NCBI GenBank assembly: GCA_043814055.1
Contig: JBDRKL010000004.1
Span: 80,518 to 144,517 of the forward strand
Direction: 5' to 3'
Source: an archaeon
GTDB lineage: Archaea > Undinarchaeota > Undinarchaeia > Undinarchaeales > JBDRKL01
Length of the DNA stretch: 64,000 nt
Under the pieces are notes generated by a model. That model searched no databases, had not been told where the DNA came from, and saw nothing but the letters and a program-made list of their open reading frames with translations. Positions within the stretch are counted from its first letter, which is position 1; each line of letters begins with the position of its first letter. The translations under genes and the position numbers were made by a program. Below are positions 2,248 to 51,157 of the stretch, piece by piece.

Positions 2248-3690
2248 ATGGACCTTACCTTGAAGCAAACCGAAGAGCTAGTATGGGAGCTCCCAAAAAC
2301 TGGCGAAATGCTTGTTCCTGGAAGAATCTACGGCGACGAAGAAATCGTGAAGCACCTTAACAATGACGTGAAAGCCGGAAAGGACTGGAACGCTCTGAAG
2401 CAGGTTTACAACGTGGCGTGCCTGCCAGGAATTCAAAAAGCGTCGCTCGCGATGCCAGACGTGCACCCAGGATATGGCTTTCCAATCGGCGGTGTCGGGG
2501 CATTTGACACTGAAACCGGGGTAATTTCAGTTGCAGGAGTTGGCTTTGATATCAACTGCGGAGTCCGGACTTTAAAGACACCGCTCAAAAAGGATGATGT
2601 TGAAAAGAAAAAGAAAGAGCTCGCTGAAGTTTTATTCAGGGTAATCCCAGCTGGACTCGGCTCAACCGGCGACATCCGCCTGAGCATAGACCAGATTGAC
2701 GAAGTGCTGGTAAATGGTGCTAAGTACTCAGTAGAAAATGGATATGGCTTAAAGGAAGACCTTGAATTCATTGAAGAAAATGGAAAAATCGCAAATGCAA
2801 ATCCTGAGAATGTCTCACGAACCGCGAAGCAGAGGCAGTTCAAGCAGATAGGCACGCTCGGCTCTGGGAATCATTATCTTGAAGTGCAGTATGTTGATGA
2901 AATCTTTGACGAGGTGGCTGCAAAAGCATATGGGCTGGAAAAAGGCCAAATCCTGGTTTCAATTCACTGCGGCTCCCGCGCGCTCGGCCACCAAATCGGA
3001 ACTGACTACCTCAAAACTTTGGAAGCTGCGTCAAAGAAATACAAAATCCCAATCCGCGAGAAAGAGCTTGTATGCGCCCCGTTCACGAGCGAAGAGGGCC
3101 AGCAGTACTTCACCGCAATGAACTGCGGAATAAACTGCGCGTTTGCGAACCGCCAGGCGCTTGCTCACTTGACGCGGAAGGGTTTCACAGAAGTATTTGG
3201 TCTTGGAGAAAAAGAAGTTGAAACCTTTTACGAAATCGGGCATAATACCTGCAAGCTTGAGGAGCACGACGGCAAAAAGCTCATCGTGCACAGGAAAGGC
3301 GCAACAAGAGCGTTCGGCCCTGGGCGAAAAGAAGTGCCGAAAAAATACCGAGAAATCGGCCAGCCAGTCCTGGTCGGCGGGACAATGGGGACGTGCTCTT
3401 ACATACTCCACGGGACTCAGAAAGGGATGGACGAGACCTTCGGAAGCGCGTGCCACGGGGCAGGGAGAAATATGAGCCGCCAGCAGGCCAAGCGCGAGTA
3501 CTTCGGGGAAACAGTTATAAAAGAGCTCGCCGCAAAGGGCATAATAATCAAGGGTCATTCAAAGTCCGGAGTTTCAGAGGAAGCGCCAGGTGCCTACAAG
3601 GACGTTACTGAAGTGGTTGACGTAATGCATACTTCAGGAATTGCGAAGAAAGTTGTGAAAGTTAAACCTTTAATATCAATAAAGGGATAG
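2248..3690 (+). CDS. rtcB: RNA-splicing ligase RtcB
   Basis: PDVHPGYG, DINCG, GNHY, HCGSR, HRKGA, HGAGR motifs. Confidence 0.97.
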   Translation: MDLTLKQTEELVWELPKTGEMLVPGRIYGDEEIVKHLNNDVKAGKDWNALKQVYNVACLPGIQKASLAMPDVHPGYGFPIGGVGAFDTETGVISVAGVGFDINCGVRTLKTPLKKDDVEKKKKELAEVLFRVIPAGLGSTGDIRLSIDQIDEVLVNGAKYSVENGYGLKEDLEFIEENGKIANANPENVSRTAKQRQFKQIGTLGSGNHYLEVQYVDEIFDEVAAKAYGLEKGQILVSIHCGSRALGHQIGTDYLKTLEAASKKYKIPIREKELVCAPFTSEEGQQYFTAMNCGINCAFANRQALAHLTRKGFTEVFGLGEKEVETFYEIGHNTCKLEEHDGKKLIVHRKGATRAFGPGRKEVPKKYREIGQPVLVGGTMGTCSYILHGTQKGMDETFGSACHGAGRNMSRQQAKREYFGETVIKELAAKGIIIKGHSKSGVSEEAPGAYKDVTEVVDVMHTSGIAKKVVKVKPLISIKG

Positions 3691-4567: not shown

Positions 4568-6042
4568 TTGTAGAACCTGCTCCACTTGTGGCTGCCGATT
4601 GTCGCGCCTATCCAAACCAGAACTGGCAATATTTCAAGGCGGCCTATCCACATCTGGAAAATGAGGACTATTTTTATCAGCATCGGCGCGGTTGCGGAAG
4701 TTATTCCAGTGCTCAACCCGACTGTTGCAGCAGCTGAAGTTGTCTCAAACAATGAGTCAATGAAGCTGAAGCCATACGCTGTTATTATAAGGGTTCCAAC
4801 AATGATAAAGAGCATATAAATGAAGAAGTACCACGAGACCTGATTTGCCTCCTCCTCTGAGAACACTTTCTTCCCAACTTTCAGCGGGAGAACCGAGGTC
4901 TTCGGCAGGAGGAACTTGTTTATTATCCAGGGCACTGAGCTGAGGAGCATTAGCAATCTTATGATTTTCAGTCCGCCAGCTGTTGACCCGGCTGACCCGC
5001 CGATGAGCATCAATACTATCATAACGCTCTTCACGAAATCATCTGCCAATGCTATGTCCATCGTCGCGTAGCCAGTGGTTGTGCTGGCGCTCATAACCTG
5101 GAAAGCGCTGTGCCGCAGAGGCTCTGGGTCTCCCTGACCCTGCAGGTACAGGGCAAGTATTCCAGTGAACACTATAAATATGACAAGCAGAGCCTGCACT
5201 TCTCTGCTCTTCGCAAAGCCCCTAAGTTCCTGCCACTTCCAGCCAAGGAGCTTGTAGTGAAGTATGAACGGTATTGAGCCGACAAGCATCAATGCCATTA
5301 TTGCAATTTCAATCCCAACGCTTGAGTAAGCGCCTATGCTCACGGCCTTGATGGAGAAGCCGCCTGTTGAGACAACTGTGAACACGTGGTTGATAGCGTC
5401 GTAAAGCGGCATTCCAAGCAGGTAAAGAATGAGCGCCCCAACCGCAGTGTACAATAAATATATCTTTGCCATGTTGCGCACAGTGTGGTGCACGCTCGGC
5501 TCAAGTCGCTCTTCCCTCGCCTCGCCCCTGAACAGGTAAGAAGCTGACATTCCAGGCCCGACCATAACTGTGAGGAAAAGCACAACTACGCCTATACCGC
5601 CTATCCATTGCGTCAAACTGCGCCAGAACAACAAGCTTAGCGGCACTGCTTCAATATCTGGCAGAGTGCTTAATCCCGTTGTTGTAAATCCGGACATTGA
5701 CTCAAAGTAGCTGTTCACAAATGCATCCGCCCCAAGCCCGCCATAGAGCTGCGGCGAGAGCATGTAGTAAGGCGCAGCTCCAACCAGCGCCATTATTGCG
5801 AAAGCACTGGCACCAAGAACCATAGCCCGGCCAAGTGTCAAATGCCCTCGCTGGTAACGCTTGAACAGCGTGAATCCAAAACTAAGTGATATCACGGACG
5901 CGATTACATAAGGCAAGAACGGCTCACCGTAGTAGACCGCGAGAATAACCGGGAGCAGAATTAAATTGCCTACAACCAGGAGAATTATGCCTAGGTAATG
6001 CAGTACTGTTGAAGCGAATTCAGGAGTTATCTTGGCTCTCAT
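4564..6042 (-). CDS. trkH: Trk potassium uptake membrane protein
   Basis: FESMSGFTTTG, WIGGIG, VSTGGF, TTTGY, IGGSAGSTAGGLK, TVGLS, GRLEI motifs. Confidence 0.95.
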   Translation of the reverse strand: MRAKITPEFASTVLHYLGIILLVVGNLILLPVILAVYYGEPFLPYVIASVISLSFGFTLFKRYQRGHLTLGRAMVLGASAFAIMALVGAAPYYMLSPQLYGGLGADAFVNSYFESMSGFTTTGLSTLPDIEAVPLSLLFWRSLTQWIGGIGVVVLFLTVMVGPGMSASYLFRGEAREERLEPSVHHTVRNMAKIYLLYTAVGALILYLLGMPLYDAINHVFTVVSTGGFSIKAVSIGAYSSVGIEIAIMALMLVGSIPFILHYKLLGWKWQELRGFAKSREVQALLVIFIVFTGILALYLQGQGDPEPLRHSAFQVMSASTTTGYATMDIALADDFVKSVMIVLMLIGGSAGSTAGGLKIIRLLMLLSSVPWIINKFLLPKTSVLPLKVGKKVFSEEEANQVSWYFFIYMLFIIVGTLIITAYGFSFIDSLFETTSAAATVGLSTGITSATAPMLIKIVLIFQMWIGRLEILPVLVWIGATIGSHKWSRFYN

Positions 6043-31975: not shown

Positions 31976-32036
31976 CTCAATGATTTTTTGGTCCAGCTTT
32001 TGCGCGAGTTTTGCGAGCGGAAAAGGTGGGTGCCAG

Positions 32037-45107: not shown

Positions 45108-45635
45108 CTAATTTCGCGTCTTGCAAACTGCCTTAATCCTTTCAAGGACAAGCGGGTTTTTCAAAACATCCTCGCCCTTCTTTTTCAAAACTCCAACCCC
45201 GCCGATAAAAATCATCTGGTGCGCTCTGGCGAATTTTTCCATTGCTGTTATTGTGCCCTGTATTGAATCCTTGCTCGCTTCTCCGGATGCTCCTGCAATT
45301 ACGTTCTTCCCCCTCAGCGAAAGTTTTTGGTACAAATAATTAGTCCTGTCCATAAAGTTTTTCATAAGACCTGAGACATTGTCAAAATAGCAAGGGCTCC
45401 CAAGCACAATCGTGTCTGCCTTTAGCAGTTCAACCTCAAGCGTTTTCATACCATCCCGGATTACACACTTCTTGGTTTCCTGGCATTTGTCACAGCCATT
45501 GCACTGCTTCAGTTTAAGGTCTCTCAGCGCGATGAATTTCCTCTTCGTGCCAAGCTCTTTCATAATCGCCTTGACAAGCTTGTCAGTGTTGCCGTTCTCC
45601 ACGGGGCTTCCTGATATGCCGAGTATGTAGGTCAT
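45108..45635 (-). CDS. Flavodoxin-like iron-sulfur flavoprotein
   Basis: GISGSP..GNT, CNGCDKCQETKKC, LGSPCYF; real start 45635. Confidence 0.9.
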   Translation of the reverse strand: MTYILGISGSPVENGNTDKLVKAIMKELGTKRKFIALRDLKLKQCNGCDKCQETKKCVIRDGMKTLEVELLKADTIVLGSPCYFDNVSGLMKNFMDRTNYLYQKLSLRGKNVIAGASGEASKDSIQGTITAMEKFARAHQMIFIGGVGVLKKKGEDVLKNPLVLERIKAVCKTRN

Positions 45636-45669
45636 GAGTAAAATGGTTTGGGTATAAACCAATTTGCAC

Positions 45670-45729
45670 GGTAGCGGTGCAGCATCACCAATTTGATGCA
45701 CCGCACTTTCCCTCCGCAAGTAGGCGGAG
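45670..45729 (+). repeat. Multi-hairpin repeat element (type A) abutting tRNA-Gly CCA
   Basis: GGTA, stem GCGGTGCA/TGCACCGC, loop GCATCACCAATTTGA, 7-nt linker, CTCCGCAAGTAGGCGGAG 45712-29. Confidence 0.85.
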
Positions 45730-45910
45730 TGGTGCGCCGGCCGGGACTTGAACCCGGGTCGCAGCCTGTTTGCAACCCACTTCGCAGATTTACTGCCGCG
45801 AAGCGGCTCCGAATCGCGTAGCGATTCGTTTTTTGGTCGAGCTTTTTGCGCGCGTAAGCGCGGAAAAAGGTCGTGGCAAGGCTGAATCATAGCCGCTAGA
45901 CCACCAGCGC
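45730..45910 (-). tRNA. tRNA-Gly(GCC) with 106-nt intron at 37/38 (45768-45873), CCA encoded
   Basis: Acceptor GCGCTGG/CCGGCGC, anticodon stem CAGCC/GGCTG, BHB helix TTGC/GCAA, T arm CCGGG-TTCAAGT-CCCGG. Confidence 0.92.
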
Positions 45911-45949
45911 ATTGACTCTTACAGAGTCTTTTTCAATACTTAAGAGTTC

Positions 45950-46024
45950 TGGTGGGCCCGACCGGAATTGAACCGGTGACCTTTTCCACGTCAAGGAAAT
46001 GTCATACCACTAGACCCCGGGCCC
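45950..46024 (-). tRNA. tRNA-Val(GAC), CCA encoded, G at position 8
   Basis: GGGCCCG/CGGGCCC, TTTCC-TTGACGT-GGAAA, ACCGG-TTCAATT-CCGGT. Confidence 0.92.
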
Positions 46025-46102
46025 GTATCCAGGGTTTAGCACCCTACCCTGGAAGTATTATAGAGGGGTTGGAGTGTATAAATATATTTGGTAGGCATCA
46101 GT

Positions 46103-46285
46103 TTACCATGGCAGCATTCCAACGAGCGCGAGAACCAGAATAACAATAAGTGCTAAACTGCTGAAAGCTGCAATCTCTACTCCAAATTCTGGTCCTTTTA
46201 ACAGGGTCAACGCAAGTATTACAATGAGTCCATTGCAGACCACTACGAGTAGAGGGTTATGATGCCCTTTCCGGTTTAGAATCAT
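46103..46285 (-). CDS. Small two-TM hypothetical protein
   Basis: 60 aa with two hydrophobic segments; could be a fragment. Confidence 0.4.
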   Translation of the reverse strand: MILNRKGHHNPLLVVVCNGLIVILALTLLKGPEFGVEIAAFSSLALIVILVLALVGMLPW

Positions 46286-50988: not shown

Positions 50989-51157
50989 ACAAACTTTTAA
51001 CCGGTTAGCTATCCTTCTGGATAACTATGCTGAAAAGTTTGATCAAAAATAGGCCATATCAAGTTTGTGATGCTATAGCCTTATTGGTCTGGTCAATCTG
51101 TTGCGCTGTTTTCCATAGGCACTAAAGTATATAAGATTTCCCACATTACACATCTTC

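Follow-up and report, generated by a model that had tools for sequence, protein, structure and literature searches.

A 106-nt intron in an Undinarchaeota tRNA-Gly gene as a probable insertion of a dispersed hairpin element

Introduction

Introns in archaeal tRNA genes are usually 12-25 nt long (PMC4090602). In the Thermoproteales, a single genome can hold closely related introns with a bulge-helix-bulge (BHB) splice motif in tRNA genes for different amino acids (Fujishima et al. 2010; PMC4090602); transposition of introns was inferred in that work and its mechanism was left unexplained. In a further source (10.64898/2026.10.13.758758), no general route for the arrival of archaeal tRNA introns was found. 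This paper discusses the origin of a 106-nt intron in the tRNA-Gly(GCC) gene of an archaeon belonging to the Undinarchaeota (DPANN). The gene lies in a stretch of 64,000 nt, which is called the window hereafter and corresponds to C4:80518-144517 of the host assembly; this assembly (the own genome, or G000) comprises 0.98 Mb in 14 contigs with 47% G+C and is 82% complete. The reading that we favour, with a probability of roughly two in three, is that the intron is a canonical archaeal intron, removed by the splicing endonuclease EndA and the RNA ligase RtcB, and that it originated when a non-coding mobile element was inserted, the outer helix of the BHB being supplied by the element's own ends. 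The element consists of three modules, M1, M2 and M3, in this order.

As in the Thermoproteales, closely related BHB introns interrupt tRNA genes for several amino acids in the same genome here, and relatives differ in whether they have them, so that DNA-level copying is implied as the means of gain; the mechanism is unexplained in both. However, unlike the Thermoproteales introns, the present family is also represented outside tRNA genes (after the 3' ends of tRNAs, after a C/D small RNA and, with flanking duplications, within the 5' ends of protein genes), its introns are about 100 nt long instead of the usual 12-25 nt, the lineage is DPANN and the outer BHB helix is formed by the element's own ends. 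The tRNA-Trp intron with a box C/D guide (Haloferax and others; PMC4090602) is similar to the Gly intron in being unusually long, in its canonical position and in its removal by EndA and a ligase, and in both the excised intron is expected to be stable. The Gly intron, in contrast, has no C, D, C' or D' box, guide complementarity was not found in it, and its length comes from the hairpins of a repeat element. In Caldiarchaeum subterraneum, a tRNA gene is disrupted by a mobile element adjoined by partial duplicates of the tRNA end, as is seen here (Sugahara et al. 2012, PMC3293823), but that element is 1.8 kb long and encodes a recombinase, whereas the present elements are about 50-110 nt long and non-coding, with no recombinase, transposase or reverse transcriptase linked to them.

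Among repeats, REP/BIME, MITEs and IS200/IS605-derived palindromes are likewise short, non-coding, hairpin-forming, multi-copy and mostly intergenic, with lineage-specific copy numbers and compensated stems. The present elements differ from REP and MITE sequences in that no Y1/RAYT transposase was found in 17 genomes of the phylum, in that the duplications are 12-59 nt long and variable instead of short and fixed, and in that they adjoin RNA genes at their ends and are able to act as introns that can be spliced out. In the introners of eukaryotes (PMC11282704), too, a non-autonomous repeat makes new introns because host splicing removes the insertion; there the spliceosome is at work, while here it is EndA acting on a BHB, with an entirely different chemistry and mode of recognition, and the targets are tRNA genes.

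What this analysis adds is that the intron is a whole copy of an element, that full-length copies exist outside tRNA genes, that the ends of the element build the splice motif, that gain is seen in relatives and that the family occurs in more than one order. A donor pool for intron gain is visible in the own genome, where the element stands as introns in two tRNA genes and in the 5' ends of protein genes and its modules form trailers behind many tRNA genes; this may point to one way in which archaeal tRNA genes acquire introns. Since the element's own ends give half of the splicing motif, a simple rule is suggested for which insertions survive as introns. At least one gain, that in the initiator tRNA-Met gene, is confined to the own genome, and intron gain becomes testable in a defined sequence system. 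In addition, a long, structured intron in an archaeon is not necessarily a guide RNA.

The tRNA-Gly(GCC) gene and its splice motif

The gene was called by ARAGORN with intron search as tRNA-Gly(gcc) i(38,106) (Table 1). It is absent from the default ARAGORN output and from the Rfam output at the gathering threshold, so the intron-aware run was required, and no second tRNA-Gly(GCC) gene was found by exon match search in the own assembly, which is 82% complete. A first-pass annotation, made from the letters of the window, had placed a 106-nt intron with a perfect BHB (TTGC/GCAA) at the canonical 37/38 site; ARAGORN and reading of the sequence gave exactly this span, 45768-45873, and the pairs of the BHB stood up to checking one by one. 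Introns are present in 17 of the 40 tRNA genes found by ARAGORN in the own genome, the long ones including those of tRNA-Met (109 nt), tRNA-Tyr (99 nt) and tRNA-Arg (84 nt). The intron of tRNA-Trp (C6:51029-51297), with an M1 copy directly after the gene, has 193 nt and far exceeds the archaeal range of 11-129 nt (PMC4090602).

The central helix of the BHB has four base pairs between U32-U33-G34-C35 and GCAA (intron nt 101-104). Its two bulges have 3 nt each, the 5' one consisting of C36, A37 and the first C of the intron, and the 3' one of the terminal A and C of the intron and A38. The outer helix, GACCU/GGGUU, has 5 bp including two G.U pairs, and the whole motif at 37/38 has the hBHBh' form, every listed pair being standard or G.U. 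Splicing in silico exactly restores CAGCCTTGCCAAGGCTG, which is the sequence of the uninterrupted genes of two relatives (G002 and G010). The spliced sequence is identical to seven intronless orthologues at 61-65 of 71 positions and to the interrupted gene of another relative, G011, at 68 of 71. Moreover, the own genome encodes EndA (an open reading frame of 177 aa, PF01974 match, 110 bits) as well as RtcB. On this sequence evidence, the Gly intron would be spliced in vivo.

The last 6 nt of the intron do not belong to the element and form an adapter of 4 + 2 nt. Adapters of the same kind close the other introns of the family, and each matches its own anticodon loop: GCAA-AC in Gly, AGAG-AC in initiator Met, AAAG-AA in Val and GAAG-AA in the tRNA-Glu of G007.

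Table 1. Features of the window (positions are those of the window; M1, M2 and M3, modules of the element)
Feature	Position	Strand	Remarks
RtcB RNA ligase gene	2401..3687	+	predicted exon joiner; PF01139, 558 bits
3' motif of M1 copy	31986..32001	-	behind small-RNA gene
tRNA-Gly(GCC) gene	45730..45910 (C4:126247-126427)	-	encoded CCA; ARAGORN with intron search, sequence reading
5' exon	45874..45910	-	tRNA positions 1-37, end ...CAGCC UUGCCA
5' half of BHB	45868..45879	-	UUGC 45876-45879; bulge (C36, A37, intron C) 45873-45875; GACCU 45868-45872, also 5' arm of M1
Intron	45768..45873	-	106 nt, canonical 37/38 site, between A37 and A38; one full-length M1-M2-M3 element + 6-nt adapter
M1	45829..45873	-	intron nt 1-45; CGACCUUUUU / CCGCGCUUACGCGCGC / AAAAAGCUCG + ACCAAAAAA
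M2	45810..45828	-	intron nt 46-64; perfect 8-bp hairpin CGAAUCGC-UAC-GCGAUUCG
M3	45774..45809	-	intron nt 65-100; 11-bp stem CCGCUUCGCGG / CUGCGAAGUGG, G.U pairs, A/U-rich loop
tRNA-specific adapter GCAA-AC	45768..45773	-	GCAA pairs with U32-C35 (central helix); AC + A38 = 3' bulge
3' exon	45730..45767	-	positions 38-76; junction after intron removal CAGCCUUGCCAAGGCUG, same as in uninterrupted genes of G002 and G010
tRNA-Val(GAC)	45950..46024	-	39 nt upstream of tRNA-Gly
3' motif of M1 copy	51033..51048	+	

Fold and modules of the intron

The intron folds with a minimum free energy (MFE) of -47.7 kcal/mol against -30.1 +/- 3.3 kcal/mol for 200 shuffled sequences (z = -5.36), none of which folds as well. 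M1 is a stem based on U5/A5 with a C.C mismatch; it is topped by a GC hairpin that varies between copies, and a single-stranded tail, which is conserved, comes after it. M2 is a perfect palindrome, and so is the M3 of copies outside tRNA genes, which is only a short GCCGC-N-GCGGC hairpin. The long stem of M3 contains two to three G.U pairs and therefore forms only in the sense RNA, the sense strand folding better than the antisense. At its end, M3 has GGGUU, which makes up the 3' side of the BHB's outer helix. A and U predominate in the loop of M3 (GUAAAU in the Gly intron, AUUAAAAAU in the Met intron and AUAUAAAU in that of G011), and one change in the stem between the Gly and Met introns is compensated, from UUCG/CGAA to UGCG/CGCA. 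RNA-level selection on the intron-specific part fits the contrast between the long M3 stem with its G.U pairs and the perfect palindromes. For M1, strand asymmetry of folding was also considered as a clue to function in RNA or DNA; its antisense folds better, but this comes from C.C against G.G mismatches and is uninformative.

All the hairpins that had been listed in the first-pass annotation exist. The first of them, however, reads CGCGC-UUAC-GCGCG with a 4-nt loop and stands on the U5/A5 stem, and GCCGC-UUC-GCGGC and CUUCGC...GCGAAG overlap, so they cannot form together and are alternatives within M3, of which the MFE fold uses the long 11-bp stem. The same annotation had noted the lack of UGAUGA and CUGA boxes, and motif search agreed: no RUGAUGA box is present in 45768-45873 on either strand, and the intron has no UGAUGA or CUGA. 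A scan of 45500-46200 against Rfam at E<=10 gave no snoRNA or sRNA, no group I or group II ribozyme core and no family above noise. Two identities for the intron were rejected on these grounds, namely a guide RNA, for which there are neither C/D nor other guide features, and a self-splicing group I or group II intron, for which there is no covariance-model match.

The M1 family in the own genome

M1 has the form CAACCTTTTT-insert-AAAAAGNTTGAYCAAAAA, that is, (C)AACC-T5, a variable insert and A5-G-N-TTGA-Y-C-A5, and it constitutes a family of 30 or more copies in the 0.98-Mb own genome. By BLAST, intron nt 1-45 and 27-68 gave significant matches at many loci of this genome. The 16-nt 3' motif of M1 occurs 24 times against none for a reversed control (24-31 copies across motif searches) and three times in the window against 0.00 expected from shuffles, and looser patterns gave 32 M1 copies with both arms. 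The basal stem covaries between AACC/GGTT and AAAC/GTTT, with a C.C mismatch in the AACC/GCTT type. What stands on the stem is freely varied: a 2-nt loop, different GC hairpins, an insert of up to 34 nt or a conserved ATTGGTTATATTTGTG-like segment. The M2 hairpins that follow M1 in other copies are homologous, their sequences differing by compensating changes so that all of them fold. The sub-modules of the intron, for which a search of the genome had been proposed in the first-pass annotation, are multi-copy in the own genome.

About ten of the own M1 copies (e.g. C12:49113-49158, C9:51768-51812 and C10:136455-136499) carry, in place of the GC hairpin, the conserved non-hairpin TATA-like insert, ATTGGTTATATTTGTG or similar. 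This insert may act as a promoter.

A profile built with nhmmer from the longest relatives found three full-length copies: the Gly intron, the intron of initiator tRNA-Met (C12:152975-153080) and, not within a tRNA gene, C2:8801-8909; a further copy, C10:141184-141273, is nearly complete. Only one tRNA-Met gene is of initiator type (C12:152935-153119, with an A1:U72 acceptor end), and its 109-nt intron is a homologue of the Gly intron, with identity at 85 of 112 aligned columns. The central helix of its BHB contains an A.A mismatch. Furthermore, the 72-nt intron of tRNA-Val(UAC) carries an M1 of the AACCCTTTT...AAAAGCGTTGACGGAAAA type together with part of M2. Therefore, as in families of transposed introns, tRNA genes for different amino acids in the same genome have homologous introns.

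Outside introns, eight M1 copies lie 0-4 nt after tRNA 3' ends (Trp, Thr twice, Leu, Ile, Ser, Ala and His), all in the orientation of the tRNA; another abuts G1 of a tRNA-Ile in the opposite orientation and another follows the D box of a C/D small RNA. The copy C2:8801-8909 is located in the 5' end of a protein gene (product beginning MCGIFG), between two diverged copies of the first 19 nt of the gene, and C10:141184-141273 is flanked by a 13-nt duplication of the start of another gene. These copies were also considered as BHB introns of mRNA, but no BHB could be drawn at C10:141184 by manual reading. All five intron copies are sense-oriented; an antisense copy would show T6-N8-T5 to the polymerase.

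Distribution among relatives

Among nine genomes, tRNA-Gly(GCC) is interrupted in two, the own and G011, and intronless in seven of the same order (G002, G003, G004, G007, G008, G010 and G012). The G011 intron has 126 nt, the same site, the same M1-M2-M3 order and the same GGGGGTTGCAAAC end, with about 63% identity to the Gly intron as against 68/71 in the exons. RtcB identity to the own genome is 80-84% for G011 and 83% for family f3, which is intronless and has almost no M1; the two are thus about equally close, and the intron distribution is patchy. The initiator tRNA-Met gene reads intronless in all eight relatives in which both exons were matched, G011 included, and is interrupted in one genome of nine, the own one, so its intron is a gain in this lineage. 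The M1 of the Met intron is closest (91%) to the copy behind tRNA-Ile, and its M2-M3 part is closest to the Gly intron; this mosaic points to recombination among copies. An invariant intron among relatives had been named beforehand as evidence to the contrary, and this is not what is found: seven genomes lack the intron and the one shared with G011 has diverged. Introns of Gly and initiator Met are hence present or absent at orthologous genes, as is known of transposed introns.

The tRNA-Glu(UUC) gene of G007 has a 99-nt intron with M1. The element is patchy across the phylum, and counts of M1 are lower in other genomes, with 5-8 in G007, 1-5 in G003 and 2 in G011, and about background in f3 and f5. 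G016, of another order, has five M1, three of them with an identical 18-mer, and the variant AAAAGCGTTGACGGAAAA is identical in G000, G011 and G016.

A very similar hairpin, AA[CGA]CTTTTT-loop-AAAAAG[GCT]TTGACCAAAAA, occurs at IMG/VR loci L054-L100 (e.g. L061:712-929, L076:7124-7241 and L073:6502-6819) in AT-rich contigs of giant-virus metagenome-assembled genomes, often in tandem arrays with a period of 31-60 nt and with visible stem covariation; a protein kinase of eukaryotic type is encoded on one of these contigs. The likeness may be due to shared origin, to convergence on a signal resembling a terminator or to coincidence of a low-complexity motif. A viral origin of the element was rejected: the AACCCTTTT...GCGTTGAYGG variant is absent from IMG/VR, and tblastx of 12 motif-bearing IMG/VR contigs other than giant-virus ones gave no match to the own genome.

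Signs of mobility

Direct duplications of 12-59 nt, significant above shuffled controls, flank 12 of the 32 own M1 copies, the upstream duplicate ending 0-8 nt before M1. In relatives, single elements are flanked by 13-45 nt duplications of protein-gene starts, tRNA-gene starts or tRNA 3' ends. No target-site duplication above shuffled background is present at the Gly, Val and Met intron copies; the partial likeness of UUGCCA and UUGCAA at the Gly junctions is due to BHB pairing and has no counterpart in tRNA-Met. With many dispersed copies and conserved ends, the family resembles MITE or REP-like sequences, whereas terminal inverted repeats with a target-site duplication of fixed length are not seen; the ends CAACC...GGTTG are complementary in the intron copies, and only GGT is left in copies outside tRNA genes. 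The mobile hairpin modules proposed in the first-pass annotation are borne out in that they behave like mobile DNA, being multi-copy, present or absent among relatives and, outside tRNA genes, flanked by duplications.

Elements just inside gene starts (C2:8801-8909 and C10:141184-141273, and L032, L033, L036, L037, L044 and L045 in relatives) have the initial 13-45 nt of the gene repeated after them. As judged by the spacing of the TATA box, this right-hand repeat starts at the transcription start or close to it, and the 3' tail of the element provides a Shine-Dalgarno-like GGTGA or AGGT before the restored ATG. At L032 (G007:C7, around 5409-5424), a reading frame that begins in the upstream duplicate of the gene start runs through the element, and its stop TGA overlaps the ATG of the intact copy (ATGA); both copies could be translationally coupled.

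The junctions seen all match RNA ends, namely the mature tRNA 3' end, G1 of the tRNA or the start of the pre-tRNA, the predicted transcription start of a protein gene (right-hand duplicate) and the 37/38 cleavage site, and most copies at duplicated gene starts are also sense-oriented. It is conceivable, if quite unlikely, that the element spreads through RNA ends, the excised intron being one moving form. An RNA ligase, RtcB or a different one, would attach element RNA, for example the released intron with its 5'-OH and 2',3'-cyclic phosphate, to cellular RNAs that are broken or complete, and the chimera would be copied back to DNA and recombined into the gene. If true, this would be retro-mobility by host RNA-repair enzymes alone and a direct mechanism creating archaeal tRNA introns. 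Spread by the excised circular intron, as suggested in the first-pass annotation, is not supported, no reverse transcriptase being found in the own genome, although some features of the junctions fit an RNA step.

Origin of the Gly intron

We infer that the intron is derived from the element, rather than the element from the intron, and that insertion took place at the DNA level. A copy of about 100 nt, M1-M2-M3, would have entered the anticodon loop of an uninterrupted tRNA-Gly gene, either in an ancestor shared with G011 or through transfer between the two lineages, and would have survived because the transcript was still repairable by splicing. In this transcript, the ends (C)GACCU and GGGUUG of the element would pair as the outer helix of the BHB, for which the 5' arm of M1 must leave its own 3' arm and pair with GGGUUG at the intron 3' end, while the long M3 stem would return this 3' end towards the 5' end. 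The 6-nt adapter GCAA-AC would pair with nucleotides 32-35 to give the central helix and the 3' bulge, the 177-aa EndA would cut in both 3-nt bulges, and RtcB would join the exons and probably also circularise the intron. A related copy would have entered the initiator tRNA-Met gene later, in the own genome only; M1-bearing introns are also present in tRNA-Val(UAC) of the own genome and tRNA-Glu(UUC) of G007. The hairpins probably serve the element or are merely tolerated and do not serve the tRNA.

Several points weigh against this account. The four pairing nucleotides of the adapter vary from tRNA to tRNA, and their origin is unexplained. By thermodynamics alone, the M1 stem and the outer BHB helix compete for GACCU, and a fold with the canonical BHB is weaker, by about 6 kcal/mol, than one in which only the cloverleaf is enforced and M1 closes on itself. 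Enforcing the BHB leaves the U5/A5 stem and the GC hairpin of M1 in place, stacked on the outer helix, the alternative pairing of CAACC(C) with (G)GGUUG is also present in the Met and G011 introns, and the cost of about 6 kcal/mol could plausibly be paid by endonuclease binding. In addition, the intron holds a U5 tract, which is an archaeal termination signal (PMC8716108, PMC2253867). Since such a tract lies within two single-copy essential genes, those of Gly-GCC and initiator Met, a single U5 would not be an efficient stop here, which agrees with the increase of termination efficiency with the number of U tracts (PMC8716108).

Moreover, an enzyme able to move the element was not found: Y1_Tnp is absent from 17 genomes of the phylum and RVT_1 from the own genome, which is 82% complete, other transposase and integrase families not having been searched. 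Two routes were set aside in this connection. Mobilisation of hairpin ends in the IS200/IS605 manner would need a Y1 transposase, which the 17 genomes lack, and reverse transcription has no enzyme in the own genome, the single reverse transcriptase of the phylum being the maturase of a group II intron in G011 with no evident link to the element. This group II intron (L115, G011:C179) has a 420-aa protein with RVT_1 and GIIM and a domain V/VI RNA, and it is the only reverse transcriptase locus among the 17 Undinarchaeota genomes; its contig is only 1.9 kb long, so its origin is uncertain. Comparative power is low because public data hold only one orthologous intron, that of G011; an exact exon-intron junction pattern across public genomes and metagenomes gave, apart from G011, only chance matches in bacterial coding sequence. 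Finally, the copies outside tRNA genes could themselves be derived from introns.

A different history would begin with a short ordinary intron at 37/38, into whose loop, a neutral landing site, hairpin modules were inserted later. The usual length of archaeal tRNA introns, 12-25 nt (PMC4090602), agrees with this, and so does the tRNA-Glu intron of G007, where by manual reading M1 is placed between separate adapters (CGGCC...GGCU) that form the outer helix without M1. For the Gly intron, we consider it unlikely. No short ancestral intron in tRNA-Gly(GCC) is seen in any relative, seven having the gene without any intron, and initiator tRNA-Met reads intronless in the eight in which both exons were matched; in the Gly, Met, Val and G011 Gly introns, the first base of M1 falls at intron nt 1-3 and the module makes up the outer helix itself; and non-element sequence amounts to only 1-2 nt at the 5' side and 6 nt at the 3' side. 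Consequently, the Gly intron looks like one element copy and not like a small intron that has grown, and the description of it as 'enlarged' in the first-pass annotation is probably wrong, since all but the 6-nt adapter aligns with full-length copies of the element.

The compensating changes that maintain the hairpins, the architecture kept between G000 and G011 despite about 63% identity and the 18-nt M1 core identical across orders might instead speak for a dedicated RNA that serves the host, such as a guide, a regulatory or sponge RNA or a stable circular RNA, with the other copies as its paralogues. This is very unlikely, given that the intron has no C/D or H/ACA boxes and no Rfam match, that it is missing in most relatives, that the cargo on the M1 stem is freely exchanged, ranging between a loop of 2 nt and an insert of 34 nt, and that modules in unrelated contexts with target duplications, in protein-gene 5' ends and behind tRNAs behave as a repeat element does.

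Expression in the manner of a split tRNA is highly improbable. The 5' half would stop at the U5 of M1, a module that is located like a terminator directly after eight tRNA genes, and would end in CGACCUUUUU, able to pair with GGGUUG upstream of the 3' exon; the 3' half would start from a promoter in the intron, for which there is the A/U-rich loop of M3, and both would be joined in trans through the BHB. However, this loop lies 21-25 nt before the 3' splice site, and by manual reading a start about 25 nt downstream falls in the 3' exon, with loss of the BHB leader. M2, which is at a suitable distance, has no TATA-like sequence. The halves are contiguous and 106 nt apart, not at separate loci, with no promoter-like sequence at a workable distance on manual reading, and an internal promoter with trans-splicing was rejected for its wrong spacing. 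In Methanococcus, moreover, a single U4/U5 tract gives weaker binding of the termination factor and less factor-dependent termination than two tracts (PMC8716108).

That the gene is dead, a tRNA disrupted by insertion and left unspliced, can hardly be credited, although a second copy could be missing from an assembly 82% complete: the exons are intact and conserved (68/71 with G011), the cloverleaf call is valid, the BHB is perfect, an interrupted gene with conserved exons and BHB has been kept in two diverged genomes, and the only initiator tRNA-Met gene, which must be needed, is likewise interrupted by a homologous element.

Neighbouring features

The tRNA-Val(GAC) gene upstream and tRNA-Gly(GCC) are probably co-transcribed. 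A 260-aa open reading frame at 45108-45890 (-) crosses the tRNA-Gly gene, and its 5' end is an artefact; the real gene downstream of tRNA-Gly probably starts at an ATG near 45636 (MTYILGISGSP...), which is preceded by a TTTATA box, and no T tract lies between it and tRNA-Gly. Since the genes around the tRNA-Gly locus all lie on the minus strand, none of them converges on it, and a role of M1 as antisense terminator for a converging gene at this locus was rejected. In the 39-nt spacer between tRNA-Val and tRNA-Gly, positions 45914-45933 read on the plus strand show a 6-bp hairpin followed by T5 (on the minus strand, A5 and then the hairpin), which may be another small module of the same kind. 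The tRNA-Gly trailer, 45695-45729 (-), opens with the hairpin CUCCGC-CUACUU-GCGGAG, and hairpins of the CUCCGC...GCGGAG type also adjoin other elements, e.g. behind tRNA-Ile and tRNA-Leu.

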